IMG/VR virus record: IMGVR_UViG_3300031088_000734
Direction: 5' to 3' (one strand)
DNA: 64,000 nt
Source: a virus
Positions 1,442 to 54,738 of this stretch are shown one piece after another (positions within the stretch are counted from its first letter, which is position 1; each line of letters begins with the position of its first letter). The notes under the pieces are model-generated. The model was not told the DNA's origin, made no database searches, and saw only the letters and a program-made list of their open reading frames with translations. Made by a program: the position numbers and the translations under genes.

Positions 1442-2620
1442 ATGACACTTCCGACATTATCTCAATTGAACTCAAATCATGAACTGATTAAAGATTTACT
1501 TCTAAAAAAAAATCTAACCATGTCCGAATATCCAGTAGCAGATTGGCAAAAAATTGTACCGGGTAAAACTGATTTTGCTTTTTGTTCTGGCCCCATTAAG
1601 TTGACTGCTCTTACAGTGTACGCCATTCAATCGGAAACTATTTTTTATTCTGTCATCTTCCCTGAGTATTCCAACAATCAAATTCGTCAGCTCACTACTT
1701 TGCTTGATTTTGTTAAAACTATTTTAAAAGAAAAACCTTCAACTTACGAACCATATAATAAATTTACGCTGGCTAATAATTGTTTAATTGTTGACAATAA
1801 AAAAATCAGTTTATTTTCTAATAATAATAAAGTTTTTTTAAGCAAGTACTCTACTGTAAACCTTGTAGACAAATTATTGTTGCCTGATTTAAGCTTTGAA
1901 ACATTGTATTCAACTATTTTAAATGATTTTAACGAAAAAATCAGTGTTATGCTTAATTCTGAGTTAGCTACCATCAATACTACCAGTATAATTCGATTAC
2001 AAGAAGAAACAAATGAAGAGTTTATTACTAGAACTCATAAAAATCGTATTGTAAAAGCATTGAGCGTTACTGCGTTTAAACAGCATGTCGATGGTCTATA
2101 TCTGCCTATTCAATCTATTCCTTATGATGTAAAAAATAAATCATTGGATAGTAATTCAATGTATTTTATGGATGTTTATGGTCGAGATAAATTTGCAATA
2201 GGTATTCAAAAAATTAATAAATTAAAAATGATGTTGTCTCCATTAATGTCTGATAATGACATTAATCAACTGGTTCAATTGCTATCGATAGCTCAATTTC
2301 ATAGCCACTTGTTACATGCTGAATTTAATAATAATTGTGTCGAATTTTCACAAAAAGATCTTTCGCTTTTATCAAAAGAAAGTTTGTCTAATAATCCAGT
2401 CTATATGGAATTTTCAATCGGTATTTTTGATTTTGAAATTACTGATAAATTTAAAATTGATAACTATATGGGGGATGGTGAGCAATATTTCTTAACCATT
2501 AATGAAGCCTATGACTATCTATTGGATTACATTCAACAAGATATTTGCAAGGTGTTGCATGCCGATGTTGAGAATGTTTGTAATAAAGATCTTCTTGTTA
2601 TTGATATGATGACCTGTTAA
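1442..2620 (+). CDS. Hypothetical protein; C-terminal half paralogous to 2623..3186; M(-4) C-terminal motif family
   Basis: KFAIGIQKINKLKMMLSPLMSDNDINQLVQLLSIAQF aligns with KFLIGVQRIQYLRQILKPLMVDKNISQLIHMLSIAQF; ends DLLVIDMMTC; start refined from 1379. Confidence 0.75.
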   Translation: MTLPTLSQLNSNHELIKDLLLKKNLTMSEYPVADWQKIVPGKTDFAFCSGPIKLTALTVYAIQSETIFYSVIFPEYSNNQIRQLTTLLDFVKTILKEKPSTYEPYNKFTLANNCLIVDNKKISLFSNNNKVFLSKYSTVNLVDKLLLPDLSFETLYSTILNDFNEKISVMLNSELATINTTSIIRLQEETNEEFITRTHKNRIVKALSVTAFKQHVDGLYLPIQSIPYDVKNKSLDSNSMYFMDVYGRDKFAIGIQKINKLKMMLSPLMSDNDINQLVQLLSIAQFHSHLLHAEFNNNCVEFSQKDLSLLSKESLSNNPVYMEFSIGIFDFEITDKFKIDNYMGDGEQYFLTINEAYDYLLDYIQQDICKVLHADVENVCNKDLLVIDMMTC

Positions 2621-2622
2621 TT

Positions 2623-3186
2623 ATGATTAATAATATAGAGTTATCTTTAAATTTAAAGGAATTTTTAATATATGTTGAGTCATTGAACATTGGTATGGAA
2701 CCTATTTCTTATTATTATTCAATTAACATGGATTACAAAAAAAGACTATGTGTGGTGACGGAAGATAGCAAAACTAAATTTTTGATAGGGGTTCAAAGGA
2801 TACAATATTTACGACAGATTTTAAAACCATTAATGGTTGATAAAAATATTAGTCAACTAATTCATATGCTTTCAATCGCTCAATTTTATAGCTATTTATT
2901 TTACAATGATGATTATTTCAATGGGACAGTTGATTTTTCTTATGTAGATAAATATGCATCTGATTATTTACAGTTTTCAGTAGGTGTTTTAAATTTTAAT
3001 ATTTTTGACAATAATATACAAGTTTATAATTGTGGTGACGATTATATATTTGGGTCATTTACTATTGAAGATACATATAATTTTTTCTTAAATTATATTC
3101 AACAAAAAATAATTGACCATTTACACGCTGATCGGGAGCAGATAACTAACAAAAATATTTTGCTTCTTGAAATGCTAAAAATTTAA
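2623..3186 (+). CDS. Hypothetical protein, paralogue of preceding gene's C-half; M(-4) motif family
   Basis: 187-aa ORF; ends NILLLEMLKI. Confidence 0.75.
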   Translation: MINNIELSLNLKEFLIYVESLNIGMEPISYYYSINMDYKKRLCVVTEDSKTKFLIGVQRIQYLRQILKPLMVDKNISQLIHMLSIAQFYSYLFYNDDYFNGTVDFSYVDKYASDYLQFSVGVLNFNIFDNNIQVYNCGDDYIFGSFTIEDTYNFFLNYIQQKIIDHLHADREQITNKNILLLEMLKI

Positions 3187-3213
3187 ACAACTAGCTTTCA
3201 GTCCATTTATTGA

Positions 3214-3242
3214 TTGCCTTGTTTTTAGCCTTGTGTTATAAT
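3214..3242 (+). promoter_or_regulatory. sigma70-type promoter (example of many in window)
   Basis: TTGCCT-17 nt-TATAAT with TG extension. Confidence 0.75.
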
Positions 3243-3270
3243 GAGGCATCATTTTTTAGAGCATTCACCT

Positions 3271-3648
3271 ATGCAACAAAAACCAGAATGGACAACCGCC
3301 CAAATCAATGCGAACATAGCCCTTCGCAACCGTCTTTATGTATCAGGATTTCTATTGTCTGGCGTTTTGAAGGATATTCGGGCTGGTCATGCTGATGGTG
3401 TTGTGAACCTTCATTATGAAGATGACACTCCAGTGGGTGTTATTGTTCATGTTACCGATGGCACATTGACTGATGATTTGTCTTGTTATTATGACTTGAT
3501 GGTCTTTGTCCGTAAGGCTCATCGGAACAAAGGAATTGGGAAAAAATTAGTGAATGAATTGAATGTATCTAATCGTTTAAAAGTAGGGCGTGGTTCTCGA
3601 TACAGCCAACATTTCTGGAGTTCACTGGGGTTCAATATCTATGGCTAA
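3271..3648 (+). CDS. GNAT-family N-acetyltransferase
   Basis: Acetyl-CoA motif A: VFVRKAHRNKGIGKKLV; start moved to 3271 because ATG 3241 overlaps the -10 box. Confidence 0.75.
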   Translation: MQQKPEWTTAQINANIALRNRLYVSGFLLSGVLKDIRAGHADGVVNLHYEDDTPVGVIVHVTDGTLTDDLSCYYDLMVFVRKAHRNKGIGKKLVNELNVSNRLKVGRGSRYSQHFWSSLGFNIYG

Positions 3649-4183
3649 TCATCACACTAAAAAGAAAATTGTGAAGCTGGTTGTTGACAGTTTTCACACT
3701 GTTTTTAAAAATAACCATCTTAATGGTCTAGGCTTTCATGAAGATTTTGAACCGATGAAAGATGTGTGTGCATTTTTCAATGGCACCCCTGTCGGAGCCT
3801 ATGGTTGTTTTAAATTTGAACTAGATGGGCATACTATCTTTGTTTATAACACTTATGGTGATGAAGATCACGAAAGACATGATGCCGAAGACATGGTGAA
3901 CATTGCCAGTATGGGTTTTTGTTTTTATTTTGACAAATACTTTTATTGCTTTGATATGGATTCTGCTGGTTATATTACGCTTTTCAACAAGACAGTAAAA
4001 CCAGCTAAAATTGATCCTGATTTTTTCAGTGGTAAACGACCTTTTTATCATTATGATGATCAAGGTTTCTTGTCTATGCAAGGATTTTATGAGAGCCTTA
4101 AATTTCCAGAGCATACAGAAGCTCATAAGTGGACAAGTGGGCCAAGAACTCGATTTGAGCTTGAAAAATTTGCTCTTTTGTGA
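3641..4183 (+). CDS. Hypothetical protein
   Basis: ORF track 3590..4183; ATG 3641 overlaps stop of GNAT gene. Confidence 0.7.
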   Translation: MANHHTKKKIVKLVVDSFHTVFKNNHLNGLGFHEDFEPMKDVCAFFNGTPVGAYGCFKFELDGHTIFVYNTYGDEDHERHDAEDMVNIASMGFCFYFDKYFYCFDMDSAGYITLFNKTVKPAKIDPDFFSGKRPFYHYDDQGFLSMQGFYESLKFPEHTEAHKWTSGPRTRFELEKFALL

Positions 4184-4233
4184 TACTATTGTTTAAAATT
4201 TGAAACGACAACTCATTTCATATAGGTGAATTT

Positions 4234-4539
4234 ATGACTACCCATTATCTTTCCATCTACAACCGTGAAACCACCACATTGAACTATTCAGGATTTAAAG
4301 ACCCTACTGCAAGCTTGCTTAAAGTAGAAGGTGAACTTTCACCAGTGGTTTTTGCTGCAGCTAAATTTATTGTAACCGATGGCGTGTTGGTTAAAATTAA
4401 CGAAGGTGGACGTTATCCTAAATGCGGTGTTGGTGAAACCCTGACTGATGAACAAGTTCATCACCTGCAATCCAACTATGAAAAAACCACCACTCAATAT
4501 TTGAATACATCCGATAAAGTTGAGGCTATCTTGGCATGA
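4234..4539 (+). CDS. Hypothetical protein
   Basis: 101 aa; AGGTG RBS. Confidence 0.7.
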   Translation: MTTHYLSIYNRETTTLNYSGFKDPTASLLKVEGELSPVVFAAAKFIVTDGVLVKINEGGRYPKCGVGETLTDEQVHHLQSNYEKTTTQYLNTSDKVEAILA

Positions 4540-4967
4540 CAACTAAACTCAGAAAAGAAGAAGTGCAACTCTATAAGCCGAAGTATCGAAATAGAACTCA
4601 TGCTCGCATGGACTTTTCTGATTGGCAAAAAGAACTCAACCGTAAAATCAGACAACAAATGCCACCAGAACTTTGCTTTCGTGTGGCAGTTCGTGAACAC
4701 TTCTTAGATCGCCTTATTGATCGAGAAGCTGATCCGCGACACATCAAAAAGTTGATTGAAGATACAATTCAGAAGAAAATGTGCGAAATTCTTTTTTTTG
4801 GTGCATTGAACAAAGATTTTCCACGCATGGTGTTTACAGATACCATTCACCATGTCATGACAACTTGGTCAAATCATGACCGTTGCATTGTATTACGTTC
4901 TTATTTCTTGAACGGTGATCGACTGGTTGGTCAAAACCCTGAATTCACATTAAATCCCCATCAGTAA
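4536..4967 (+). CDS. Hypothetical protein
   Basis: 143 aa; ATGA overlap with upstream gene. Confidence 0.7.
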   Translation: MTTKLRKEEVQLYKPKYRNRTHARMDFSDWQKELNRKIRQQMPPELCFRVAVREHFLDRLIDREADPRHIKKLIEDTIQKKMCEILFFGALNKDFPRMVFTDTIHHVMTTWSNHDRCIVLRSYFLNGDRLVGQNPEFTLNPHQ

Positions 4968-5033
4968 AGATTTTCGTTGCATAATTGTTTTTTTACTGTT
5001 ATACTCTCGAAATCATATTATTGGAGATCAACC

Positions 5034-5426
5034 ATGTTTAAAGAAATGTCTCAACAAACTCAAGAACTTATTGTGGAATCACTCAACAGTGTTGTTACTC
5101 GACTCACTTGTTTTAATGGTGAAATTGCTATTCTTATGCAAGACGCGGCTGAACCCTATCAGAGCATCAATGATTCAGTGACTGACAAACTTGAAAACGT
5201 TGCCGAACTTTTTACCGAAGAAGGTCATGTGATTGATGAAGTGGACGCTTACGCAAAAATGGTTGTGCTGAAAGCCCTTAATGACCGTATTAAGGAACTT
5301 GAAACTTCTATGACTTATTTTATTCAATTTGGTGAAGCGTTGCCTATTGAAGATGTCGTTTTCGCTTATGAATCCAAAATTAAAGCCCTGTATGGTGCTC
5401 AAATGGAATTCTTGACCGCTGTTTAA
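5034..5426 (+). CDS. Hypothetical protein
   Basis: ORF track 4977..5426; GGAG RBS before ATG 5034. Confidence 0.7.
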   Translation: MFKEMSQQTQELIVESLNSVVTRLTCFNGEIAILMQDAAEPYQSINDSVTDKLENVAELFTEEGHVIDEVDAYAKMVVLKALNDRIKELETSMTYFIQFGEALPIEDVVFAYESKIKALYGAQMEFLTAV

Positions 5427-5524
5427 CCTGTAAATGATTTAATAAAAGCCATCTTTTTGATGGTTTTTTTATTGATTTTTTTCGTCGTTTTTATTATAAT
5501 AAAGGTCTAAATCCTAACCGAGTA

Positions 5525-5971
5525 ATGCAAATGCCTAATTTTAATGTCGGTGATGTTGTTGTTGACTTGACCAATATGGACAAATGGCGAGATCCAAAGG
5601 AGTTTAAATTGGAGTTGTTTCTATATGACTTCAATAAAAAAGTTTTGATAACTGATGCAACAAATTTTATTATCAAATCGAATTATGAACGCTATAACAC
5701 TTCTGCTTTCTTACCTGATTATGAACTGTTTTCTCAATCTACTGGCTTGAATGAAGCTAAGTCAAGAGTTCTTTTTAATTTGACACCACACAGGGCTGGG
5801 CTGGGTAAAGAATTTCAAAAACAGAATACACCAGAAGAACTTGTTCGTTTAAAATCTTCAATTGCGATGGATAGTGATGAGGATACGACACAATTTATTA
5901 TTGCTTTGAAAGATGCCTTCTTGGCCTATTTTGATAGTATTCATGAAGAAATCAAGCCACAAATTTCTTGA
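5525..5971 (+). CDS. Hypothetical protein
   Basis: 148-aa ORF following terminator and TATAAT box. Confidence 0.65.
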   Translation: MQMPNFNVGDVVVDLTNMDKWRDPKEFKLELFLYDFNKKVLITDATNFIIKSNYERYNTSAFLPDYELFSQSTGLNEAKSRVLFNLTPHRAGLGKEFQKQNTPEELVRLKSSIAMDSDEDTTQFIIALKDAFLAYFDSIHEEIKPQIS

Positions 5972-6022
5972 GCTTTTTGGTGTTTTTTGATAAAATATCT
6001 TCATAAATTAATCACATATTAG

Positions 6023-6298
6023 GTGGAAACTATGTCAAATCGCGTTATTACTATTAAAAAAGTCGGCACTGTTAACAATGTTATGTATCGAGACGTTTTG
6101 GTGGGATCTTTTCATGACGGGGACAATGACACCCTTGCCATGATTATTGATCGGGCTGTTGATGTTTACATTGAACGGCGAGCACCTGATTTGAAAGAAG
6201 CTTTTGAGCGAACCATTGATATGGCTTATGATATGGGCCGAAAAGGTCAAGGTATTGCTACAGCCAAAAAACTTATTTTGCTGGCTTGCTCGGCATAA
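6023..6298 (+). CDS. Hypothetical protein
   Basis: 91-aa ORF; likely start ATG 6032 after AGGTGG. Confidence 0.65.
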   Translation: METMSNRVITIKKVGTVNNVMYRDVLVGSFHDGDNDTLAMIIDRAVDVYIERRAPDLKEAFERTIDMAYDMGRKGQGIATAKKLILLACSA

Positions 6299-6329
6299 CG
6301 TCAACTTTCTATCATTTTTGAGGCTTAAC

Positions 6330-7195: not shown

Positions 7196-7204
7196 TTTTA
7201 ATAT

Positions 7205-10916: not shown

Positions 10917-11585
10917 ATGAATAATACTTTATTGTTCGCACAACGTATGATTGTCGCTTATGCCACAGGATTTATTGGTATCCTATGTTCTATTCTTATC
11001 GCTGCCTTGCAGATAACAAAGACATCTAATACCAGTGATGTGCTATTGCTTTGTTTGGCTTGTGGCTTTGCAGTTGCTGTTTTTGTAATGTATCTGGATG
11101 GCCGTCCAGTGCTTAAACATATTCATTATTATTCAAAATACACCATGTTGAATTATGTGTTTAGCTTATATGTTGTAGCTCATTCAGTTTTCATGAGTGG
11201 TTCAAACCAATTATTTATATTATTGCCTGCCATGTTGCTAAGTTTTTTCAATATTTTCTTGTTTTCTAAGATCCATCATGGTCTTTCTGAGCATTTGGTT
11301 ATTCCAGAACTTCAACGATTGTATAGGCTGTTGCCAGAAATAAATAATGTTAATATTGATTTTGATTATACTTTTTTAAGAAAAACAGACCTTCTGATCT
11401 TTGAAAGACGATTTTTTAAAATCATGACAACAATGGGCGAGTTACTTTTTGATGGCCGTCATATTTATCTTAATGGTGAGCAATATGAAGTCGATGCCTT
11501 TGTGGCTGGATTTAAGGCTTGTGCGATTGATATCAACAGTTCAACACCAGAAGATGCTGTTGTTATGCAAATGTATTGTGTATAA
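10917..11585 (+). CDS. 4-TM membrane protein, copy 2; M(-4) motif family
   Basis: HYYSKYTMLNY motif; ends DAVVMQMYCV. Confidence 0.75.
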   Translation: MNNTLLFAQRMIVAYATGFIGILCSILIAALQITKTSNTSDVLLLCLACGFAVAVFVMYLDGRPVLKHIHYYSKYTMLNYVFSLYVVAHSVFMSGSNQLFILLPAMLLSFFNIFLFSKIHHGLSEHLVIPELQRLYRLLPEINNVNIDFDYTFLRKTDLLIFERRFFKIMTTMGELLFDGRHIYLNGEQYEVDAFVAGFKACAIDINSSTPEDAVVMQMYCV

Positions 11586-11663: not shown

Positions 11664-12368
11664 ATGAGGTGTTTTATGAAAGCATTACAGTATTTGAAAC
11701 AAATCACCCCCTTGTTTATTATGCGTCAATACAACTTGTCTGCATTTATTGTATTGTTGTGTTCTTGTTTTGGCATGTATCTCACCATGTCACATATGGA
11801 ACTGGGTGGCAATAAGTTTTTTATCATTGTGGGTGGTGTGACCTTAGTTACGCTGGGGTTCTCATTTACGCTTCACGCGATGAATTACTTTGCTATGCCT
11901 CCTGACCGATTCTACTCAGACTGGTCTTTGATGAATTATATTTTGGCTGGCGTTGTGTTATTGACCACGCTCACCATGCCAGAAGAAAGTCTTATTAACT
12001 ATTTGATTATTTTTTCTATTGCTATTCTCAACTTGTGTCTGTTTATGTCGAGTATGCAATTTAGAAGCACCCATTCAACCGAAATCAACAAAATGCGAAA
12101 GTTGTTCCCTGATGAAAAACAATTCAAGTTTGATTTTGACTTTGTTTTTGCCCGAGATTTCAAGGGTGTTGTCAATAAGAAAAAAGTCAACTTTGGTCTT
12201 TGTCTCTTAACCAACTCAGGTAAGATTGTTTTGGCGGGTGATCATTTTTATTTTGATGACAAACCTTATTCTGCTGAAAAGCTGGCAATCGACCTTAAAG
12301 AATGTGAGTTGAGCTTTAATAAGGCCAGCAAAGATGATTTGAAGGTTGTTGAAATGGCGACTTATTAA
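11664..12368 (+). CDS. 4-TM membrane protein, copy 3; M(-4) motif family
   Basis: DRFYSDWSLMNY motif; ends DLKVVEMATY. Confidence 0.75.
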   Translation: MRCFMKALQYLKQITPLFIMRQYNLSAFIVLLCSCFGMYLTMSHMELGGNKFFIIVGGVTLVTLGFSFTLHAMNYFAMPPDRFYSDWSLMNYILAGVVLLTTLTMPEESLINYLIIFSIAILNLCLFMSSMQFRSTHSTEINKMRKLFPDEKQFKFDFDFVFARDFKGVVNKKKVNFGLCLLTNSGKIVLAGDHFYFDDKPYSAEKLAIDLKECELSFNKASKDDLKVVEMATY

Positions 12369-14385: not shown

Positions 14386-15453
14386 ATGGATAACCTAACG
14401 ACTATTAAAACTCTAAAGCTTAGAGTTAAAGACAAATATAAAGGCGTTCTTTGCCAGATGGCGAAGAACGTTAACTTTGTTTGGAACTTCGTTAATGAAA
14501 TCAGCACTCGCTCAATTGTCGAGCGTGACAAATTCCTTTCCGCTAGAGATCTTCAAAAATACACCGATGGTTCTTCGAAACTAATCAACTTGCATAGTCA
14601 AACTATTCAAGGAATTTGTGACGAATATGCGACTCGTAGAATTCAATTCAAAAAAAGAAAATTAAAATGGAGAAAATCGGTAGGTTCTAAACGATCTCTT
14701 GGTTGGGTTCCTTTTAAGAGTGGTGCTGTTTCTTATAAAAATGGTCAAATTCATTTTAATAAACATCATTTCTCTATTTGGGACAGTTACGGACTGTCCC
14801 AATATAAATTCAAAAGTGGTTCTTTTAATGAAGATGCTCGTGGTAGATGGTACTTCAACGTGGCGGTTGAAGTTCCAAGAACATTATCTTCAAGTCAAGG
14901 TAGTGTAGGGATTGATCTTGGATTTAAAGAATCGGCTGTTTGCAGTGACGGTTTTAAAACAGAAAGAAATCGGATTTATCGTTCTTATGAAAAGAAATTA
15001 GCCATTGCTCAACGTTCTAACAACAAAGTTAGAACGAGAGCTATTCACGCTAAAATTGCTAATATTCGAAAAGATACACTCCATAAATTCACAAATCATT
15101 TGGTCAAAAACTACAGTGAAATTTATGTAGGTGATTTGAGCATTAAAAAAATGCTCAAAGCTAAAAGAGGAAAGTCTACGTTAGATGCCGCTCACGGCAT
15201 GATAAGAAGTATGCTGGTCTATAAATGCGATAACGCAGGCATACATCACAATGTGAATGTAGACGAAAAAAACACTACCCGCACCTGTCATTCGTGTAAG
15301 TCCTTAACAGGACCGAAAGGATTAGATGGGCTGCGAATAAGAGTATGGACTTGTTGTGTGTGTGGTGACACACACAACCGGGATGAAAATTCCGCTAAGA
15401 ATATACTCGAGGTCGGACATGGCCTTCTAGCAGTAGGAATCCCCTTGCTTTAG
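14386..15453 (+). CDS. tnpB: RNA-guided endonuclease TnpB
   Basis: RuvC-I VGIDLG, Zn finger CHSC/CCVC, RuvC-III HNRDENSAKNI, typical N-terminus IKTLKLRVKD...NFVWN. Confidence 0.92.
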   Translation: MDNLTTIKTLKLRVKDKYKGVLCQMAKNVNFVWNFVNEISTRSIVERDKFLSARDLQKYTDGSSKLINLHSQTIQGICDEYATRRIQFKKRKLKWRKSVGSKRSLGWVPFKSGAVSYKNGQIHFNKHHFSIWDSYGLSQYKFKSGSFNEDARGRWYFNVAVEVPRTLSSSQGSVGIDLGFKESAVCSDGFKTERNRIYRSYEKKLAIAQRSNNKVRTRAIHAKIANIRKDTLHKFTNHLVKNYSEIYVGDLSIKKMLKAKRGKSTLDAAHGMIRSMLVYKCDNAGIHHNVNVDEKNTTRTCHSCKSLTGPKGLDGLRIRVWTCCVCGDTHNRDENSAKNILEVGHGLLAVGIPLL

Positions 15454-16399: not shown

Positions 16400-16981
16400 T
16401 TATTGCTTTTGGAACTTATCCCATTCTTCTTTAATGGTTTCCGAATCAACAAATACTGCTAGGTTTTCATAGACCACATCATTAATCTTGATATTGCGAT
16501 CTCGACCCACTGACATACCTAGAATAGCTAACTTGTCTTCAGAGTATACTGGGCCACCTGACATACCACCAATCGTTCGGGAATCACTAATCGCATAACG
16601 ACCATCTTTAAATTCAACTTCGTCTTGAATGAACTTACCACGCAGTTCAACAGTCAGACCGTTGTCTTTTGGCCCTACATGAATCACTTCTTCATCGGCT
16701 TTTGGATTTCGCCATTCAATGGCTGGATTGAACTTGTCGTTAGGTTTATTCTTGAAGAACACCAGATCAACGGTATCACTGACATACGCAGGATCTTCTG
16801 GGTATTTGTTATGCTTTGCGGTTACGGCATATTCTTCATTCCACTGAATAAAGCTAGCTGTAATCACTTCAGGGTTTTTGTTATTGACAATCATTTCGTA
16901 GTTGCTATTGGGAGCATGACTTGAACACGCTGATATAATTGCAGCCAAAGCTAATGAACACATCATTTTAAACATTTTCAA
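16400..16981 (-). CDS. Trypsin-like serine protease lipoprotein (triad intact)
   Basis: Lipobox ISA-C; YAVTAKH, DLVFF, GGMSGGPV. Confidence 0.8.
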   Translation of the reverse strand: MKMFKMMCSLALAAIISACSSHAPNSNYEMIVNNKNPEVITASFIQWNEEYAVTAKHNKYPEDPAYVSDTVDLVFFKNKPNDKFNPAIEWRNPKADEEVIHVGPKDNGLTVELRGKFIQDEVEFKDGRYAISDSRTIGGMSGGPVYSEDKLAILGMSVGRDRNIKINDVVYENLAVFVDSETIKEEWDKFQKQ

Positions 16982-17050: not shown

Positions 17051-17638
17051 TTATTTCTTATTAGTATTTTGAAATTTGTCCCATTCTTGTTCAATTTTCG
17101 AACTTTCAATAAACAACGCAATATCAGGATAGATCACTCCATTGATTTTTGCATTGTTAGCCTTGGCTACGGACATACCCAGAATGGATTGTTTGTCTTC
17201 GGAATAAACAGGGCCACCCGACATCCCTTTGATAATGGCTGCACTGCTAACAGAGTAAGCTGCACCTTCATACAGAATTTCTTGATTAATCGAAGTGCCA
17301 TGTCGTGTCAGTGTCCGATCACCAGAACTAGAACCTACATGTGTTACAGGTTCCTCAATTGATGGATTACGCCACTGAATGTTGGAGTTGAATCCTTTGT
17401 CAGCCGGATGTTTAAAGAAGGCCAGATCATATGTCTCACTTACATAGTCAGGATTTTTTGGATACAGGTTGTGCTTTGCGGTTACAGCATATTCGCTGTT
17501 CCATTGAATATAGCTGGCACTAATCACTTTTCCATCTTGCAGGTCAGTGATTTTTTTGTAATTGCTGTTAGGGGGAGAACTACAAGCAGCTACCAGTACA
17601 ACACACGCCATCACCACAATCATTTTCAGCATTTTCAT
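17051..17638 (-). CDS. Trypsin-like serine protease lipoprotein (triad intact)
   Basis: Lipobox VAA-C; YAVTAKH, DLAFF, KGMSGGPV; tandem paralogue of 16400..16981. Confidence 0.8.
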   Translation of the reverse strand: MKMLKMIVVMACVVLVAACSSPPNSNYKKITDLQDGKVISASYIQWNSEYAVTAKHNLYPKNPDYVSETYDLAFFKHPADKGFNSNIQWRNPSIEEPVTHVGSSSGDRTLTRHGTSINQEILYEGAAYSVSSAAIIKGMSGGPVYSEDKQSILGMSVAKANNAKINGVIYPDIALFIESSKIEQEWDKFQNTNKK

Positions 17639-30236: not shown

Positions 30237-30354
30237 TTCAAGTCTATTATTTTTTGACTAATTTAAAGAGCCGACGAATGGCTCTTTTTTTTGTTTAACT
30301 CTTTCATTTTTTACAATTTAAGCTATAATGGATGTGCAAACTAAGGAGCTTACT

Positions 30355-31038
30355 ATGTTTAAACTAATGTGTATTATATTTTCTAGCTTATTGATGACGG
30401 GGTGTGCTATTAACAACATTGGTAACACAGTGAATCGAAAAATGGATAATTATTCAATTATTGATACCATTACAGAACCACAAAGCAAGCTGGATTACAT
30501 TCGTTTTGAATCACGTAAAACGGAAGCTGCAGACACCTATTTCTCAGTATCGAGTGGTGTTCAGTGGAATGATGATTATGTGGTGGCTTTAAAAACAACT
30601 GAAAGTGCAAATGATAAGTTTGCGTGTCTTGATGAATGTGGTGTTGTGTTTATTAAGAAACATAAACAAGCACCGGTACCGGAATGGCGTCATCGCATCA
30701 GTAATGAACCTGTTACCTTGTTAGGGGCTTCGGACGAAGTTGATGAAACCTTTGTTTATAAATCAATGGATATAGATGTTTCTGCTATCAGTGCAGACAT
30801 CACACCATATCCAGTATATGCGGTACCAACCACCATTGTAGAAAACAATGCAGAAGGTGGCCCAGTCTATGGCACTGATGGTAAAGTGATTGGTATCATT
30901 TCTGGTTTTGTGAATACTGTTGATGATACAGGTGAACGTTTGACTTATCTGGATGGTTTTGATTCTGGTTATTTTGCTTTGTATATTCCTTATAGTGAAT
31001 TGATTAGAGCTTGGGATTTAGTTAAGCCAACTAAGTAA
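30355..31038 (+). CDS. Trypsin-like lipoprotein, catalytically dead
   Basis: Lipobox MTG-C; GVQWNDDYVVALKT (His lost), NAEGGPV (Ser replaced by Glu). Confidence 0.7.
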   Translation: MFKLMCIIFSSLLMTGCAINNIGNTVNRKMDNYSIIDTITEPQSKLDYIRFESRKTEAADTYFSVSSGVQWNDDYVVALKTTESANDKFACLDECGVVFIKKHKQAPVPEWRHRISNEPVTLLGASDEVDETFVYKSMDIDVSAISADITPYPVYAVPTTIVENNAEGGPVYGTDGKVIGIISGFVNTVDDTGERLTYLDGFDSGYFALYIPYSELIRAWDLVKPTK

Positions 31039-31139: not shown

Positions 31140-31865
31140 ATGTTTAGATACGTCATTCTTGTTGCCATTACAAGCCTTATTGTAGGTTGTTCGTTTAATG
31201 CTTCCAATTATGAAGCAGAGCAAGCTAAACAGCCTGTTAATGGTCTTAAAAACTACAATGTGGTTCAAGACGCCAGTATCAACATGGGTGGACGCGATTT
31301 GAATTTCGTTACCTTTGAAAAAACAGTTGAAGTTCATGTTATTCAAAATGGTAAAATCATCACTGATACGCAATCTCAATATGGCAGCGGTGTTCAATGG
31401 AATGAAGATTATGTAGTGACGACTAAAGCTGTCAATTTTGTAAATGGATCTTCTCAGCCATGTATCAAAGATTGTGAAATTCAATTTATCAAACGAAAAG
31501 CAACCGCTCCGGTTCCTGATTGGCGTTCTCATGTTGCCAATGAACGAATCACCTTTGTAGGCATTGAAAGCGAAGCTCGTTTTCGTGCTGAATTTGGTAT
31601 GGATTTGAACGTTAAGACCTATACCGAAACCAACACAAGCACGTTGCTCAATGTAGCCGACAATCAAATTGTTAACAACATGTCAGGTGGGCCAGCTTAT
31701 GGTCTGGATGGTAAAGTAGTTGGTATCTTGACGGGTTCTACTGAGACGGCTAATCTTCGTAATTCAACCAATCGTAATTTGAGTGCCCGTGGCGAACGTT
31801 TGTCAGTCTATCTGTCCTATGAAGATGTGCAGAAAGAATGGGTTAAGTTTCAACAATCACATTAA
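31140..31865 (+). CDS. Trypsin-like lipoprotein, probably inactive
   Basis: Lipobox IVG-C; GVQWNEDYVVTTKA (His replaced by Ala), NMSGGPA retains Ser. Confidence 0.7.
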   Translation: MFRYVILVAITSLIVGCSFNASNYEAEQAKQPVNGLKNYNVVQDASINMGGRDLNFVTFEKTVEVHVIQNGKIITDTQSQYGSGVQWNEDYVVTTKAVNFVNGSSQPCIKDCEIQFIKRKATAPVPDWRSHVANERITFVGIESEARFRAEFGMDLNVKTYTETNTSTLLNVADNQIVNNMSGGPAYGLDGKVVGILTGSTETANLRNSTNRNLSARGERLSVYLSYEDVQKEWVKFQQSH

Positions 31866-32123: not shown

Positions 32124-32912
32124 TTGACTATGAAAAATATTATCAAACATCATTTAAAGCAATTGTTCGAAGAAACTTTTAACATCACTGTTAATAATAT
32201 TCTTTTCTCTAAAAATAAGTATAATTCTCAACTTTTTGCTGGTAATGTTTATTATGGTGACAACAAAAAATTAAAATATAAATTTACGACAACTCCTATT
32301 AATGAAGACTCATTTACAACTAAGTTAGTTATTCCGCCTGATGATGATTTGTATCATTCTGCTTATTTTTCTGGTTTGCTTGACAATCATATTATTTATC
32401 AGAAAGTTAGAAGTTGTTATAATTTAAACCATAAGTACAAACAGTTTCGTCTTGACGAATATGATTCGCCTATTGTCGTCAAACAGACTGTCAAAAACAA
32501 CAAGGCTGAAGTTACTCATGAGTTTAAATTACATATTTTTTCTGTTGTCGGTTTGAGTTCAAAAACTGCTTCAGAAGGTCAATTGGATACTAACCTTGTG
32601 CTTGAATGGACAGATGATGGCCTCATTAATGTTAGGGATTCTTATTTGAAGCAAAATATGCATTATCCTAACAGGAGACGTATACTTTCTTTTCAAGGGC
32701 ATGGTGATCAAAAGATGGAGAGAAATGAAGAAACTTACGATTTCATTTTAGATATCATCCATCAAAACTTCATTCACTTTATCGCATATCGTCAACAGGC
32801 CGACTTACCGATTGATGATATGACAATTGAAGACGTTTACAAGACAAATCATGTTGACTTAAATTATAAGTTCATTGCTGCTAGTTTGGTGCGGGATATG
32901 GTTTCAATTTAA
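32124..32912 (+). CDS. Hypothetical protein; divergent M(-4) motif member
   Basis: 262 aa; ends ASLVRDMVSI. Confidence 0.75.
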   Translation: MTMKNIIKHHLKQLFEETFNITVNNILFSKNKYNSQLFAGNVYYGDNKKLKYKFTTTPINEDSFTTKLVIPPDDDLYHSAYFSGLLDNHIIYQKVRSCYNLNHKYKQFRLDEYDSPIVVKQTVKNNKAEVTHEFKLHIFSVVGLSSKTASEGQLDTNLVLEWTDDGLINVRDSYLKQNMHYPNRRRILSFQGHGDQKMERNEETYDFILDIIHQNFIHFIAYRQQADLPIDDMTIEDVYKTNHVDLNYKFIAASLVRDMVSI

Positions 32913-37854: not shown

Positions 37855-38280
37855 GTGGTTGAAAAACTTAATTTTTATGGTAATTTATTCATTTCAAATG
37901 AGGATTTTTCAATGGCGTTAATTTTATACAGTAATGGTGAAGCTTCATTCATCAAGAAAGACATCAATCCAGACTATTTTGATGACAGCGGTCGATTAAA
38001 TATTGACTATGTACAATTCACATTGGATTCAGAAGACATCCATACAATCTTCATAGATGATCCAGAAACTGTCTTGACCATTGGTGAAGGTGAGTTTCAA
38101 GGTCATTACACCATGTTCCTTTACAACAGTGAGGCTGAATTTAAACAATTGCCAGTGAATGAGTTCATGACTGATGTTGCGTTGCAAGTGGGAATGATAC
38201 CTCCTGATACTAATATCAGAGGCACTGTCATTTGTTTGGAAATTGATGAGCTAGGTATGCCAGACATGTCGAATATATGA
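37855..38280 (+). CDS. DUF3846-like protein, paralogue of 38352..38696
   Basis: LYNSEAEFKQLPVNEFMT...NIRGTVICL. Confidence 0.55.
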   Translation: MVEKLNFYGNLFISNEDFSMALILYSNGEASFIKKDINPDYFDDSGRLNIDYVQFTLDSEDIHTIFIDDPETVLTIGEGEFQGHYTMFLYNSEAEFKQLPVNEFMTDVALQVGMIPPDTNIRGTVICLEIDELGMPDMSNI

Positions 38281-41223: not shown

Positions 41224-41751
41224 TTATATCGTTAACATGTTAGCTACAGTCAATCTCTGATTAAACTCAACACTGTTGAAATCATATACACCCACTACAT
41301 CCATTTCTGGCAACAACTCTTTTAGTTCTGACCCTTTGTAATGCTTGGACAGCATGAGTAATTTCAATAACTTTTGATCCAAACCCACATTAAAGTTACA
41401 GATGACTTTTTCATTGATATTACGTTCATAACGATAAACAATATCATTCAGTTCAAGATGGTTTTCACCTTTAACATCTTCATAGAAAATCCAGAGCATG
41501 GCTCCGTTGGCTTTATTATAAAATGAGAAACGTAATCGTTTGAATTTACCATCGTCAAAAATGGCATCACAATCTTCTAGCATCCCCGGAAAGGATATGC
41601 CTAATTTAATGGTGTCAAAGTTGAGTGTTGTCTTGTAGATTAATCCACATGTTCCTTTGATGGCTGCATGCTCACAAAGAACTTCAAAATAGCCGGGAAG
41701 CCCCCATTTATTTTTATCTTTGAAGTCCGTTAAAACAAATTTTTCGTACAT
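41224..41751 (-). CDS. YDFxS subfamily of M(-4) motif proteins
   Basis: Ends ELLPEMDVVGVYDFNSVEFNQRLTVANMLTI. Confidence 0.75.
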   Translation of the reverse strand: MYEKFVLTDFKDKNKWGLPGYFEVLCEHAAIKGTCGLIYKTTLNFDTIKLGISFPGMLEDCDAIFDDGKFKRLRFSFYNKANGAMLWIFYEDVKGENHLELNDIVYRYERNINEKVICNFNVGLDQKLLKLLMLSKHYKGSELKELLPEMDVVGVYDFNSVEFNQRLTVANMLTI

Positions 41752-41752: not shown

Positions 41753-42292
41753 TTAAATTAACACCATTTTAGCGAGATCCAGCCTTTGTCTGAAATTATC
41801 ACTGTTTAAATCATATACACCTGTCTGATAAAATTCTGGAAATGTTTCTTCCACGAATTCTTTTTGACCTGTTTTGCTACTCATCAAGATTTTGATCATA
41901 TCTTCATCAAGAATAGCTCCAAATCTATATTTTTGATGATCTTCAATATGTCCACCAGATGGGTTATATCCGAATGCTGTTCTAATAAAGTTCAAATCTT
42001 TATCAACTGTAATGCTTAGTATTTTATTATATCTTCTGCTATTAAAAGCAAAATGAATATGTTTAAGACAACCTTCATCTGTAAAGTAAGCGTGACAGGT
42101 TTCTTCCAAATCATCAAATTTCATGCCTGTTTTAACATCAGGAAGACTTAGATTTTTATTGTTTGCATAACGATTAATTTCTTTTTCAGCAATAGCTTCT
42201 ACAAGATCGATAAAACCTGTTTTATCCGCTTGAAAAAAATTTGACATTTTAGGGTATTCCGACATGAATAAACTCCATTGAAAATTAGACAT
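41753..42292 (-). CDS. YDFxS subfamily of M(-4) motif proteins
   Basis: Ends ETFPEFYQTGVYDLNSDNFRQRLDLAKMVLI. Confidence 0.75.
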   Translation of the reverse strand: MSNFQWSLFMSEYPKMSNFFQADKTGFIDLVEAIAEKEINRYANNKNLSLPDVKTGMKFDDLEETCHAYFTDEGCLKHIHFAFNSRRYNKILSITVDKDLNFIRTAFGYNPSGGHIEDHQKYRFGAILDEDMIKILMSSKTGQKEFVEETFPEFYQTGVYDLNSDNFRQRLDLAKMVLI

Positions 42293-49482: not shown

Positions 49483-49624
49483 CCTGATTGGATTTCAAAA
49501 GCCACTTCGGTGGCTTTTTTGTTGTCTAAATTTTATCAATTTTATGAAAATTTCAACCCTTATCCCTTTACCGTTGATTTTTTTTACAAATTGTGTTAGA
49601 CTCAATTATTATCGGAGATTTCTT

Positions 49625-51127
49625 ATGTCTAAAATAACAACAGAAGATTGCAAATTATTCCTTTTTGATATATACAAAGATAAAAAAGTAACAGAATGGA
49701 AGCGAATTCGCAAATTTAAAGACGAAAATGGTGATTCATGTCGAGATTTTTCTCATTCTGATGGAACTTCTCTTACTTTGATCGAAAAAAATGGTCAATT
49801 ATCCGTTCTGCCATTAGCAGTAATACAAAGTTTTATTAAAAGTGAAAAACCATCAGGAATTTCTACAAAAAGTGAAAAATCAAAGGGCGTTTCAATCTTG
49901 CCATTAACGCTTGAAAATAATAACGAATTGACTAGAAAAGCTCAATTTACAGTATTTGATGAAACACAACTAAAATCAGCTAAACGCTTAGTAAATGCGT
50001 TTGCTAAACCAAAAGAAGACCCAATTGAACCCAATTCCGACGCCAAAGGTTTTGACGCCATTCCCAACCTTATTTACTTCTCATTTCTTGAAGACGCTAA
50101 TTGTAATGAAATCGAATACTTAGAAACGATTGCTAAGGAGATGAACTTCAATGCCTTAATGAATGATATTGTTGTCTTCTTTATGCCATCGACGGTTTCA
50201 TCCATGTGTGATCATCTGTCTCCATTGATTGAACCGTTGTTGCCGGTACCACTGCAGGAAATTGAAGAAATGTCGTTTACGTTGAATGATAGCAATTTGA
50301 CGGTTACTGATGTCTTTGAACAACTCACCAAAGCAGGTTTTGTTTATAACCCAGATGGTTGTGCTTTGAGGTCATTGTTTACTCAATACCAATTGATTGC
50401 CATTGATCCTGTTATCAATCCTGATGACAAAACTGCAGAATACAAGAAATCGTTCTTGGCTGCATTGAAAAAAGATGATGTGAACAAAATGAAAACTTTG
50501 ATTGATTCGGGAATGCCATTGACATTTAAAGTCGGTGGAAAATCGTTATTAGCTAAAACAATGTATGAGAATAAGCTTGAATGTTTCAAGTATCTATTAA
50601 CGCTCTATCCTAATACGGCTAATACAGGTAATGGGTCTGTTGATCAGGTGTGGGAAGGCGTCTGGTGGCCTAATGATTGTTCTCGTTACTTCATGGCGAA
50701 TGCTACTTATGACTTTACTCATTCCAATAAAACTGCACATCGTCATCTAGTTGGAACATTGGTTCATCATACTGAGTATTTTGACAGTATGAACCAACGA
50801 GTTAATCAAGAACTGTTCTCAGTAGCCTGTCTAGAATCTACATTAACGTATGATAGAGCTTATCCCGTGTTTAAGGATTTTGTCAAAAAAGCCATAGATG
50901 ACTATCCAGTTACTGTTTCAAACAGCAAGGAAATGACTGAACAACTTGAACATGGTTTTATTATTCCACCTATTTTAGAGCTTTTGGCTGGCAGTTCTTG
51001 TACGTTTGATGGAAAGACTGTCTTTGAAGTTGTACAGGCTAAAATTGATGAAATAGGCCATGATCCCAAAGGATATATCAACAAGATTAATTATTATAAA
51101 GCTTTTTTGAGAAATCATAGTCGATAA
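49625..51127 (+). CDS. Large hypothetical protein with ankyrin-like repeats
   Basis: GGAG RBS; ALKKDDVNKMKTLIDSG...GKSLLAKTMYENKLECFKYLL resembles ankyrin helices; start refined from 49445. Confidence 0.65.
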   Translation: MSKITTEDCKLFLFDIYKDKKVTEWKRIRKFKDENGDSCRDFSHSDGTSLTLIEKNGQLSVLPLAVIQSFIKSEKPSGISTKSEKSKGVSILPLTLENNNELTRKAQFTVFDETQLKSAKRLVNAFAKPKEDPIEPNSDAKGFDAIPNLIYFSFLEDANCNEIEYLETIAKEMNFNALMNDIVVFFMPSTVSSMCDHLSPLIEPLLPVPLQEIEEMSFTLNDSNLTVTDVFEQLTKAGFVYNPDGCALRSLFTQYQLIAIDPVINPDDKTAEYKKSFLAALKKDDVNKMKTLIDSGMPLTFKVGGKSLLAKTMYENKLECFKYLLTLYPNTANTGNGSVDQVWEGVWWPNDCSRYFMANATYDFTHSNKTAHRHLVGTLVHHTEYFDSMNQRVNQELFSVACLESTLTYDRAYPVFKDFVKKAIDDYPVTVSNSKEMTEQLEHGFIIPPILELLAGSSCTFDGKTVFEVVQAKIDEIGHDPKGYINKINYYKAFLRNHSR

Positions 51128-51219
51128 TGTTAATTAAACCACTTCGGTGGTTTTTTTGTGACTATTTGAAAGACAACAAAAAGCCCCACGATAGTGAGGC
51201 TTATTCAGTACATTAACGC

Positions 51220-51936
51220 TTAAAGAAAGTGAGCGGAACTTTTAGGCGTCAACTCATAACCAAACGACTGCAGGAATTTCTTGTCAAAAGCAATGATTTT
51301 ATCCCGGTGTTTTTCACACTCTTCCGGCTCTTCAATTTTGTTGGCTTCAATGGCAGAAGCGGTGAACAAGTTACCGTATATTTCAACCAGTGCCATCTGG
51401 TCAGCATCAATGGTTCCGATCTTGTGAATAGGTGTATGACCAATTTTATCTTCCCAGCCACGAATAACGGTTTGTTCGTTAATCAGTCCCGGCATGGAAT
51501 CCATTGCAGCGACCATCAATGCAAAAGAATTGTCTGGCATAGAGCTTGTTTCGTCGGTGATATAACCAAACAATGACACTTTCACGCCATCATTAGGCAC
51601 CAGTTCAACCTTTTTACGCGATTTGGCGACACTGCCATAACGATACTTGCGATAACCAGACAGCATATTCTTTTTAGCGTCCGTAGGCTTACCATCCCGA
51701 GCATCTTGGAAGAGTTCAAGATAAACAGGTAGGCTTACCATCATCTTGTTGGTTACACCCAAGCAGATATGATCCGAAGCGTGATGATAATGGGACACAA
51801 TGATTTTGTCAGCAGTGTTGTAATTTTTTGGAAGACGTTCAGGATCATGAAGTCCTAGACGGTACTGTTCTTCAAACAGAGGGACATTATCACGGTCAAT
51901 GTCATGACGGATAGCGATGACGACTTGGTTGCCCAT
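51220..51936 (-). CDS. Hypothetical protein
   Basis: 238 aa; GGAG RBS on minus strand. Confidence 0.75.
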   Translation of the reverse strand: MGNQVVIAIRHDIDRDNVPLFEEQYRLGLHDPERLPKNYNTADKIIVSHYHHASDHICLGVTNKMMVSLPVYLELFQDARDGKPTDAKKNMLSGYRKYRYGSVAKSRKKVELVPNDGVKVSLFGYITDETSSMPDNSFALMVAAMDSMPGLINEQTVIRGWEDKIGHTPIHKIGTIDADQMALVEIYGNLFTASAIEANKIEEPEECEKHRDKIIAFDKKFLQSFGYELTPKSSAHFL

Positions 51937-52084
51937 TTTTTAAATCTCCAATAGTTTTGATGTGCCTATTTTACTTAAATTGCATAAAGATGTACAGGTT
52001 TTTATTCATTATTATTTATCTTTCATTTTTGATGATTGTATGATATAATTGCATGTCATTTTGCTATTTTTTTAAGGTGTAATC

Positions 52085-52777
52085 ATGCTAACTCTTACTA
52101 AAACACATATAGAAACAGAAGTCTTTAAAGAGACTGTCTTGATTACGCCTGATCATGGTTCCTATGAGAATTTTGTGAGCGAATACAAAAAGAACATTTT
52201 TAATAAAGTTCAAGAAGTTATGGATTTTATCAGTCTTAAAATGGATGCAAAATTACGATTTCAAGTCAACGAATTTGACAACATTTATGAAATTGCTTTG
52301 ATGAAATTTAATTTCAGAAAGGTTACAGAAGGTAGATCGACCACTTGTATTATTACCTTTGATGGATATCTAACTTTTGAGTGTAATAGATTTGCATTTA
52401 AATTTGACAATGCTTATTCATATTTCTACGCAATCTTGAATAAACAGTTAGATCTTGTTCAGTTTGAATACTCATCAGTTCATTATAATAAACACAATGT
52501 TGATCGCAGTATCAACTTGAAATTTGATAAAGACACAAACATGACAGAATATCATTACACAGTTTGTTCTACTTTTTTTGGATGGGAGATTGGGCGGTTA
52601 AAAAGCAAAGACATGCTTTGCTCTTATGCTGATGAATTGTTTTTGCACACTACACTCACCAAAAGAACACCTTTGATGGATGAATTATTCCCAGAATTGT
52701 CTGTTGATGGTGTTTATGATTTTTCATCACAAGATTTTGCTGATCGATTGTCGATCTTTTCTATGCTAACTCTTTAA
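52085..52777 (+). CDS. YDFxS subfamily, array copy 1
   Basis: Ends ELFPELSVDGVYDFSSQDFADRLSIFSMLTL. Confidence 0.75.
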   Translation: MLTLTKTHIETEVFKETVLITPDHGSYENFVSEYKKNIFNKVQEVMDFISLKMDAKLRFQVNEFDNIYEIALMKFNFRKVTEGRSTTCIITFDGYLTFECNRFAFKFDNAYSYFYAILNKQLDLVQFEYSSVHYNKHNVDRSINLKFDKDTNMTEYHYTVCSTFFGWEIGRLKSKDMLCSYADELFLHTTLTKRTPLMDELFPELSVDGVYDFSSQDFADRLSIFSMLTL

Positions 52778-52789
52778 AGGTTTGACATA

Positions 52790-53398
52790 ATGAATATGGC
52801 AGATAACAGGCTAAAAGAAGCAGCAAATTTAGCGAAATCTAAAATTTGTGATTCTCTCTCACTCATTGAGCGAAAATTTAATATGAATTTTGATTTTAAA
52901 ATCACCGAAAATGCTAAAAATATAGTATTTTCCAGTGTGAAAAACTATGATCTTAAATTCTATCAAACACACGGTAAAATTATATTTAAACCTGTTCATG
53001 ATGAATTCATAGTTAAAGTTAATGACTTTAAACTGGCATTACCTAATGCCTTACAATCTTTTTTTATTATTATATTTAATGATAATTTTGATATCATATC
53101 CATAAAATTTACATCTTACAAAAAACTACCTTTTGGGCTTTCTAAAATAATTGTACTTTTTGATGATCAACTTGAACTTGATAATATTGAATACTATTCA
53201 ACTTCCGGCAACTCTTTCAATAAATCTAAATGCTTATTAAACTCTTTTACGGATGAAGTTTTGCTGTTTATTTTATTCAACAATACCACTGATGTGGTAA
53301 AAGAATTGTTGCCAGAGTATCACATTCCATCGGCTTATGATTTTTCATCACAAGATTTTGCTGACCGATTAAATGTTTTTTCCATGCTAACACTTTGA
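52790..53398 (+). CDS. YDFxS subfamily, array copy 2
   Basis: Ends ELLPEYHIPSAYDFSSQDFADRLNVFSMLTL. Confidence 0.75.
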   Translation: MNMADNRLKEAANLAKSKICDSLSLIERKFNMNFDFKITENAKNIVFSSVKNYDLKFYQTHGKIIFKPVHDEFIVKVNDFKLALPNALQSFFIIIFNDNFDIISIKFTSYKKLPFGLSKIIVLFDDQLELDNIEYYSTSGNSFNKSKCLLNSFTDEVLLFILFNNTTDVVKELLPEYHIPSAYDFSSQDFADRLNVFSMLTL

Positions 53399-53414
53399 TA
53401 ATGGAACTTATATT

Positions 53415-54080
53415 ATGAACAAAATTGAGTATTATTACGAAGTAAAAGAAGAAGACTTAAAACTAAACGATAGCTTTGTCGCTGCAAAAAAAATAGTTAT
53501 TGATAAAATTTTTGCAACTATCAAATATATTGAAGACAGATTTAATGTTTCTATTTCTTGTCTTTTAAAAAATGATAATACAATTATTTTTGAGAGTATT
53601 GGACCAGTAGATTTCGAAATATCTATAAATAAAAACACTTCAGATGAAAAATTGTCTTATATTGCAAAATCTGATACAAACTACATTTCGTTTTTAGTCT
53701 ATGACTATGCTTTTTCTTTAAAAAACAAATGTAAATTCACTGTTGAATTTGATTCAAATTTAAATTTTCTAACACTTTCGATACTGTCATCAAGACTCAA
53801 TAAATCAAGAACAAAATTTTCTTTTCTGTCTTTAAACTTTGACACTAATCTTAATTGCAGTAGTATTGAACATATAGATCAAGATAACGATTATAATCTT
53901 TCGAAGACTGTTGATACATTGTCAACTTATGAAGATGAGTTAATGTTATTTAAGATCTATGAAAGCAATCGAGAGACTTTGATAAATGATTTCCCTGAGT
54001 TCTATATTCCAGCAGCTTATGATTTTCAATCGGAACAATTTGCAAATCGTATCAAAGTTTTTTTAATGTTAACTTTTTAA
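53415..54080 (+). CDS. YDFxS subfamily, array copy 3
   Basis: Ends NDFPEFYIPAAYDFQSEQFANRIKVFLMLTF. Confidence 0.75.
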   Translation: MNKIEYYYEVKEEDLKLNDSFVAAKKIVIDKIFATIKYIEDRFNVSISCLLKNDNTIIFESIGPVDFEISINKNTSDEKLSYIAKSDTNYISFLVYDYAFSLKNKCKFTVEFDSNLNFLTLSILSSRLNKSRTKFSFLSLNFDTNLNCSSIEHIDQDNDYNLSKTVDTLSTYEDELMLFKIYESNRETLINDFPEFYIPAAYDFQSEQFANRIKVFLMLTF

Positions 54081-54096
54081 TTAGGAAAAACCCAAT

Positions 54097-54738
54097 ATGT
54101 TAAATACACAAGCTACATTACAAGAATTTAATGAGTACATTCAAGAAAAAAAGAAATCAATTATACAAAAGATCCATGAATCCATTTTCAAAATTGAACA
54201 ACATTTCAATATTAAATTTACCTATGATGTGATGGAATTTGATAATGATATCATTATTAAAGGTGTTGATGAGTATTCTTTTACTGTTTCCAAATGGTTT
54301 CAATCAAAAATACATCCTTATAATTTATTGAAATTTAATTGCACTGGATTTCCTTTTGTCCTTCCTAATAGTCATAAAACGATTTTTTTTATTACGTTTA
54401 ATGATGATTTTGATATTAAAGAAGCTCAATTTAGGACTTCATTTTTGACTAAGAAAGGCAATATAACTGGTCTAAAGATTTTTTTTGATAAATCACTTGA
54501 GTTGAATCTTATAGAAAATAGTTATATTCCAAGTGGTGGTGGCAAAAACAGTTATAGTTTAAAAACATCAGAAATGATGTGTCCATTTTCAGATGAGGTT
54601 ATTTTATTTCGATTGTCTTATAACACAAGTGAAGAAGTTCAAGAACTGTTACCAGAATTCTACATTCCATCAGCCTACAATTTCCAATCAGAAGATTTCA
54701 AAAATAGATTAGCCGTTTATGAAATGATGACTACTTAA
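54097..54738 (+). CDS. YDFxS subfamily, array copy 4
   Basis: Ends ELLPEFYIPSAYNFQSEDFKNRLAVYEMMTT. Confidence 0.75.
   Translation: MLNTQATLQEFNEYIQEKKKSIIQKIHESIFKIEQHFNIKFTYDVMEFDNDIIIKGVDEYSFTVSKWFQSKIHPYNLLKFNCTGFPFVLPNSHKTIFFITFNDDFDIKEAQFRTSFLTKKGNITGLKIFFDKSLELNLIENSYIPSGGGKNSYSLKTSEMMCPFSDEVILFRLSYNTSEEVQELLPEFYIPSAYNFQSEDFKNRLAVYEMMTT

Follow-up and report, generated by a model that had tools for sequence, protein, structure and literature searches.

A position-locked C-terminal tail on many orphan proteins

A stretch of 64,000 nucleotides of viral DNA was analysed (the window; bases 19374-83373, minus strand, of the 179,373-bp IMG/VR record IMGVR_UViG_3300031088_000734), and it was found that many proteins of this element end in a common short tail, which has a methionine exactly at the fourth residue from the C-terminus (position -4, the last residue being -1). 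The tail is strongly enriched, locked to the C-terminus, constrained at the level of the protein, better conserved than the bodies that carry it and separable from them. It occurs on soluble as well as on integral membrane proteins, and it persists in distant relatives. The explanation that we favour, with about an even chance of being correct, is that the tail serves an expanded and fast-evolving set of orphan proteins as a conserved docking handle in the cytoplasm, and that it is recognised by a putative common partner.

The C-terminal counts were performed with 287 greedily chosen open reading frames (ORFs) of the 179-kb record. Methionine was present at -4 in 64 of the 287 ORFs, while about 7 were expected from a methionine frequency of 2.3% (z 21.7). 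The next strongest enrichments at the C-terminus were isoleucine at -1 (z 6.5), leucine at -9 and aspartate at -11. The consensus consists of an S/T-x-x-D/E cap, hydrophobic residues at -9, -7, -6, -3 and -1, D/E at -5 and methionine at -4. Clean members, defined by hydrophobic residues at -9, -7, -6 and -1 together with D/E at -5, comprised about 48 ORFs, which is about one in six (~17%) of the ORFs of the record. The termini were scored with a 12-residue matrix, from which each member's own family was left out. The threshold of 8 bits was reached by 26 of the 48 member termini, but by only 9 of 50,145 internal windows and by none of the other 239 termini. A first-pass annotation had noticed the motif on twelve proteins of the window, and the profile scan of C-termini revealed a strong enrichment over background that extends far beyond these twelve. 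The top-scoring termini of non-members belonged to two adjacent paralogues outside the window (G000, 1269-2309 and 2322-3401, both on the plus strand; locus L001), which end in VVEAIFI and VIEAMFI and thus have the same tail with alanine replacing methionine at -4.

The codon use inside the motif was the same as the genome-wide use, indicating a constraint on the peptide rather than on the DNA. A cause at the DNA level, such as an internal ATG used as a start codon or a mini-ORF, was ruled out by this ordinary codon use. In orthologues from two related genomes (56-93% identity) the methionine was retained exactly at -4, whereas ORFs with a chance methionine at this position lose it. The genomes of the phages RB69 and PA5oct were treated with the same ORF caller and gave no comparable signal, their top signal being a terminal lysine only. 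Chance or an artefact of ORF calling was ruled out by the orthologue check and by these two controls. Ralstonia phage RsoM2USA, which gave the best match of an RNA ligase, likewise had methionine at -4 in none of the 61 ORFs of its first 50 kb. Of the 26 ORFs on a 77-kb contig of a distant relative (L022; GC content 31%), 11 carried the tail. On this contig the tail ORFs adjoin genes for a class II aminoacyl-tRNA synthetase and a Band_7 (HflK/C-like) protein. The members had a median length of 255 amino acids (aa), were mildly acidic, and were clustered in tandem arrays, with 26 adjacent pairs versus 7.9 expected.

The twelve ORFs of the first-pass annotation and their final ten residues agreed exactly with the translations. 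They are listed here with family designations (F01 and so on) and with the number of transmembrane (TM) helices where these were found:

1442..2620, plus strand: long member of F06 (392-413 aa), paralogue of 2623-3186, ends in DLLVIDMMTC, no match in Pfam or NCBIfam
2623..3186, plus strand: F06, 187 aa, ends in NILLLEMLKI, tail kept in orthologues at 70-87% identity
10216..10899, plus strand: F04, membrane protein (3-4 TM) with a cytoplasmic C-terminal domain, ends in DLKLWEMIKY, tail kept in an orthologue
10917..11585, plus strand: F04, membrane paralogue, ends in DAVVMQMYCV
11664..12368, plus strand: F04, membrane paralogue, ends in DLKVVEMATY
32130..32912, plus strand: F12, 260 aa, weakly related to F06 (hhalign probability 10% with tails removed), ends in ASLVRDMVSI
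41224..41751, minus strand: F01, 175 aa, ends in RLTVANMLTI
41753..42292, minus strand: F01, 179 aa, ends in RLDLAKMVLI
52085..52777, plus strand: F01, 230 aa, first in a tandem array of four, ends in RLSIFSMLTL
52790..53398, plus strand: F01, 202 aa, ends in RLNVFSMLTL
53415..54080, plus strand: F01, 221 aa, ends in RIKVFLMLTF
54097..54738, plus strand: F01, 213 aa, the member modelled by AlphaFold2 (AF2), ends in RLAVYEMMTT

Two further ORFs of the window have borderline tails and may be degenerate members. The ORF at 56491-57108 (plus strand) ends in NTNILSMLLK, with methionine at -4 and lysine at -1, and this end is identical in the orthologue from L010. The ORF at 37855-38280 (plus strand) ends in ELGMPDMSNI.

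The tail ends a conserved C-terminal module

Within the families, the last 15 residues were 40% identical, the positions -60 to -16 were 32% identical, and the remainder 25%. An exhaustive HMMER search for F01 yielded 136 representatives. An alignment of 105 F01 sequences contained 1.98 bits of information in the last 15 positions, 1.80 bits at -60 to -16 and 1.06 bits in the remainder. Apart from the start methionine, eleven F01 residues were conserved to at least 70%, and ten of them lay within the last 47 positions (E -47, P -28, E -27, A -21, Y -20, F -18, S -16, F -13, R -10 and M -4), indicating that the conserved unit of F01 is a module of about 47 residues and not a decapeptide. Position -4 was occupied by methionine in 109 of the 136 representatives and by I, L or V in 23, and nearly all of the proteins ended three residues later.

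The module could also be distinguished from the body by its distribution. In two-body forms of F01 from other genomes (320-384 aa; P0052, P0059, P0060, P0062 and others) it was present on the last body only, and a paralogue exists that consists of a body without a tail. Both observations show that the body does not need the module. The tandem forms also provide a natural map of the domain boundary in this family. F03 tolerates a deletion of five residues that directly precede the last nine, and the tail is joined to the preceding helix by a capping-box turn, without a floppy linker. The first-pass annotation had interpreted the motif as a short C-terminal helix that binds a common partner. It is indeed confined strictly to the C-terminus, is conserved more than the bodies and behaves as a separable end-helix, but in F01 it ends a three-helix module of about 47 residues and is not a bare 10-mer.

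The mechanism that we propose would have the following parts. The motif would represent the last 9-14 residues of a terminal alpha-helix that starts at the S/T-x-x-D/E cap, and this helix would close a small C-terminal helical module on a large, tandemly expanded set of orphan proteins. The bodies would diverge fast, in the pattern of an arms race, and would probably descend from a single ancient alpha-beta-alpha protein. The C-terminal end would stay constant owing to the need to fit one shared partner, which would gauge the distance from the free C-terminus. We infer the existence of this partner, and likewise that the selection is for binding rather than for folding.

The bodies and a possible structural role of the terminal helix

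The 48 members were grouped into 23 families with BLAST. After removal of the tails, profile-profile comparisons linked only F05 with F23, F08 with F15 and F06 with F12, and a weak relation of F01 and F02 was found in other comparisons: a match of P0124 (E 1e-7) connects an F02 protein with the N-terminal half of F01, and hhalign gave 25% for the module in front of the tail. Searches with the 105-sequence F01 profile against the other families (hmmsearch and hhalign) found nothing but F02 above the controls, and Smith-Waterman scores between families were only about 2 points above the controls and could not be separated from composition. None of 67 tail-bearing proteins had a Pfam match at E <= 0.001. 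With ten tail-bearing proteins, nothing but sub-threshold noise was obtained from Pfam and NCBIfam, and no real match from PHROGs.

Two families without sequence similarity to one another, F01 and F03, were modelled with AF2. The F01 model (m15f91d43afac, the protein of 54097..54738; predicted local distance difference test score, pLDDT, 82) comprises a helix at 4-37, ten strands at 40-157, helices at 164-174 and 179-189, a loop and the terminal helix at 199-212. The F03 model (pLDDT 80) comprises N-terminal helices, nine strands, helices at 195-210, 214-218 and 232-245, and the terminal helix at 249-256. The order of elements is thus the same, namely N-terminal helices, 9-10 strands and 3-4 helices, and both models gave weak structural alignments to the BLIP-like chain 4fr9_A and to 3u1w_A. 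The model confidence was 57-71 in the last 40 residues of F01 and 58-68 at the C-terminal end of F03, while it was about 90 in the bodies.

The bodies had been described as unrelated in the first-pass annotation. This holds insofar as no similarity is detectable outside the last 15 or so residues, but two families share the element order in their models and none of the 67 proteins has a known domain, and therefore the apparently unrelated cargo may represent one ancient and very divergent superfamily. The AF2 results speak for an ancient common origin of many families at least, and they are compatible with conservation of the helix for folding as well as for binding. As regards a single fold for all members, which had been named as a finding that would speak against the docking idea, the two modelled families agree in their element order and the rest were judged from sequence.

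Several of these results weigh against a docking handle. The partner is so far putative only. The agreement of two models in the absence of sequence similarity, together with their shared weak matches, makes a single fold with a structurally conserved last helix possible. Most of the circumference of the helix is hydrophobic, and a tight capping turn precedes it; both features would fit a packed helix. The complete lack of known domains is expected of one superfamily and not of a tag on arbitrary proteins. The alternative that takes up these points is that the end-helix is purely structural: all members would belong to one ancient, divergent alpha-beta-alpha superfamily, and the helix would be the best-conserved core element, for example a plug on the sheet or part of a three-helix bundle, without any external partner. 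The weak relation of the F01 and F02 bodies and the narrow length range around the median also fit this explanation. On the other hand, the body exists and is repeated without the module, and the 4-TM families bear the tail on a domain of only about 90 residues behind a different N-terminal architecture. More than 20 families and the F01 representatives preserve the exact spacing from the free C-terminus, and a buried core helix needs no such spacing. In addition, both models are least confident in this helix, and F03 tolerates the deletion directly in front of it. A purely structural role is considered possible, but rather unlikely.

As the best reading, we retain the idea of a common docking helix, with about equal chances for and against it, and with the modification that the unit in F01 is larger than first described and that the bodies may be one superfamily.

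Membrane members and the cellular location of the tail

The first-pass annotation correctly stated that three of the twelve proteins, all members of F04, are 4-TM proteins, and a second membrane family, F21, was found outside the window. Both families consist of integral membrane proteins with 3-4 TM helices, and the tail is borne by the short C-terminal domain described above. The segment following the last TM helix is strongly basic, which points to a location of the tail-bearing domain in the cytoplasm. Signal peptides were not found in the soluble members. A cytoplasmic tail on TM proteins together with the lack of signal peptides indicates that a reader of the tail would be cytoplasmic.

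These results bear on the idea that the tail is a signal for loading cargo into a capsid or shell, or for export by a secretion machine. C-terminal helical peptides load cargo into encapsulins and microcompartments, where a terminal helix serves as an address on enzymes of known families, is attached by flexible linkers, and is encoded beside shell genes. Substrates of type I (T1SS) and type IVB (T4BSS) secretion systems likewise carry C-terminal signals. The element shares with encapsulin and microcompartment cargo the short terminal helix on diverse proteins, and a resistance-nodulation-division (RND) pump set with an outer-membrane factor is encoded nearby. Unlike such cargo, the tail-bearing proteins lack known domains and include integral membrane proteins, and shell genes were not seen. 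Genes for capsid, structural or shell proteins or for a secretion ATPase were not recognised in the approximately 230 kb examined, and the members lack signal peptides. The suggestion of the first-pass annotation that the tail might direct capsid packaging or export became unlikely with the finding of integral 4-TM members, whose tail is placed in the cytoplasm by their sequence, and overall we regard a cargo signal of either kind as highly improbable.

Candidate readers of the tail

Among described systems, the sliding-clamp epitopes of the T4 family come closest to a single C-terminal motif shared by unrelated proteins. The C-termini of T4 gp43, gp55 and gp33 are interchangeable, short hydrophobic-acidic epitopes at the extreme ends of unrelated proteins, which dock on one hub (PMC2988020). 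The tail of RB69 gp43, ...ASLFDMFDF, is in the same register as the consensus of the element (L -7, F -6, D -5, M -4, F -1), and T4-type genes are aboard (see below), so that the proteins might dock on a clamp of the gp45-like or DnaN type. However, the RB69 gp43 tail scored about 0 bits with the matrix of the element versus a member median of 9, and gp55 and gp33 were not among the top-scoring RB69 termini. T4 has three clients, while the tail is found on ~17% of all ORFs of the element, and it is hardly plausible that a DNA clamp would serve dozens to hundreds of clients, with integral membrane proteins among them. The linkers that carry the T4 epitopes are variable and flexible (PMC2988020), whereas the tail ends a conserved helical module, the preceding segment of F01 being conserved and predicted to be helical. 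Searches with the clamp families PF02916 and PF00712 gave no match in the 179-kb record, which is itself a fragment. A clamp as the reader thus has very little probability.

A better-motivated candidate, by its neighbourhood and by analogy, is a soluble protease of the element. Its gene is located about 6 kb past the end of the 179-kb record, outside the window:

L035:1289-4126, plus strand: FtsH-like protein, 945 aa

The protein contains Walker A motifs at residues 350 and 561, an AAA lid and a Peptidase_M41 domain with an intact HEVGH at 776. It has no TM segment, its N-terminal ~340 residues are without a domain match, and its C-terminal 44% alone resembles FtsH of PA5oct-like jumbo phages (30% identity). 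The gene is preceded by that of a 936-aa AAA protein and is followed by three further tail-bearing genes. The tail might be read by this FtsH-like tandem-AAA metalloprotease, either as a degron for scheduled clearance or as the tether of adaptors that capture host proteins for degradation. The tether of the adaptor SspB to ClpX is its C-terminal peptide. Proteases of the AAA+ type read C-terminal tags, FtsH recognising the ssrA tag, and enzymes of the FtsH type degrade membrane proteins as well, which would fit the 4-TM members (PMC9601784). By tethering itself to ClpX, SspB combines a variable substrate-binding body with a constant tether, similar to the proposed layout of the element's proteins (PMC9963277). 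Recognition requires the extreme C-terminus in these systems (PMC9601784, PMC9963277), an enzyme of the cognate type is encoded beside tail genes, and the Band_7 gene of the distant relative can be added as a further hint.

On the other side, neighbourhood and analogy are the sole link between the protease and the tail, and the FtsH-bearing jumbo phage PA5oct shows no C-terminal motif. The consensus differs from those of the AAA+ tags, and known degrons are exposed and unstructured peptides, while this tail is a predicted helix in a structured, conserved module. We consider it improbable that the protease reads the tail. The more far-reaching model would be a tag-directed proteolysis run by the element, in which dozens to hundreds of proteins would dock on the FtsH-like protease via the helix with methionine at -4, and either their variable bodies would hand over captured host proteins, e.g. 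of defence systems, for destruction, or the proteins would be cleared on schedule themselves; this model, too, is given a low probability. If true, it would be the counterpart in a prokaryotic virus of the F-box/PRANC adaptor families of eukaryotic viruses.

The ankyrin/PRANC (F-box-like) families of poxviruses are tandemly expanded and fast-evolving families of giant virus-like genomes, and they combine a variable target-binding body with a conserved C-terminal module for one machine. The proteins of the element would have the same layout, but a relation in sequence or fold does not exist, and the element is prokaryotic, its genes being led by Shine-Dalgarno sequences.

A motif that is locked in position on about one sixth of the proteins, and locally on up to 40% in relatives, is among the strongest proteome-wide signals in raw sequence. 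It sets a functional class apart from the other orphan genes of this giant phage-like lineage from leaves, surfaces and foods, and it matches no curated family tested. If the docking explanation is correct and one partner reads the tail, this partner would be a hub of the element's biology, and the tail would offer a handle on hundreds of proteins, as a peptide bait or in reporter fusions. If the tail is instead the core helix of one fold, the set would rank with the largest lineage-specific expansions of proteins that are known from prokaryotic virus-like genomes.

Source record and gene content

The record is classed as a provirus in IMG/VR, with a CheckV estimate of 55%, and the GC content is 34%. 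A Shine-Dalgarno motif, GGAG at -12 to -8, was present at 22% of the naive starts versus 1.7% in the background. Contigs of up to 1.86 Mb encode proteins identical to those of the window, and close relatives were found on contigs of 0.77-1.85 Mb. The same gene content was found on both flanks of the record, indicating that its borders are arbitrary. The whole replicon may be a huge phage-like element or something more cell-like.

Metagenomes of the phyllosphere and of surfaces contained the sequence, and food and soil runs contained small shares of its words; no RNA run was among the sequencing runs listed for it. Scans of viral and genome contig collections for related loci retrieved no relative, megablast and tblastn searches against GenBank phages yielded matches of only the RNA ligase and the FtsH-like protein, and look-ups in the ESM Atlas gave nothing informative.

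Most ORFs of the record lack known families. The recognised genes include the T4-type genes for RegB, RNA ligases 1 and 2 and dCMP deaminase, and genes for ribosome recycling factor, SIR2, NAD kinase, methyltransferases, HNH and TnpB proteins, a DEDDh exonuclease and a cation-efflux protein. Four short paralogues of 193-241 aa are trypsin-like (16400-16981 and 17051-17638, minus strand; 30328-31038 and 31140-31865, plus strand); they have weak Trypsin_2 matches and carry neither a PDZ domain nor the tail. The TnpB gene at 14386-15453 (plus strand) is of the IS605 type (OrfB_IS605 and a Cas12f1-like TNB domain). The adjoining ORF of 295 aa belongs to a family of four paralogues, which includes the largest protein of the record (965 aa). 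The RegB homologue is an ORF of 143 aa at 4536-4967 (plus strand), and it was assigned by synteny with L018:11914-12345. The T4 endoribonuclease RegB cleaves at GGAG, and GGAG Shine-Dalgarno sequences are used by the same element.

Outside one end of the record, the 936-aa AAA protein and the soluble FtsH-like protease are accompanied by a complete tripartite RND efflux set (L037:1437-7040), which consists of a membrane-fusion protein, an ACR_tran pump and an outer-membrane factor, and by a gene for an OmpA-family protein (L038:1057-1701). The RND set and the OmpA-family gene, amid orphan genes, are an odd cargo for a phage and raise the question of the type of the replicon.

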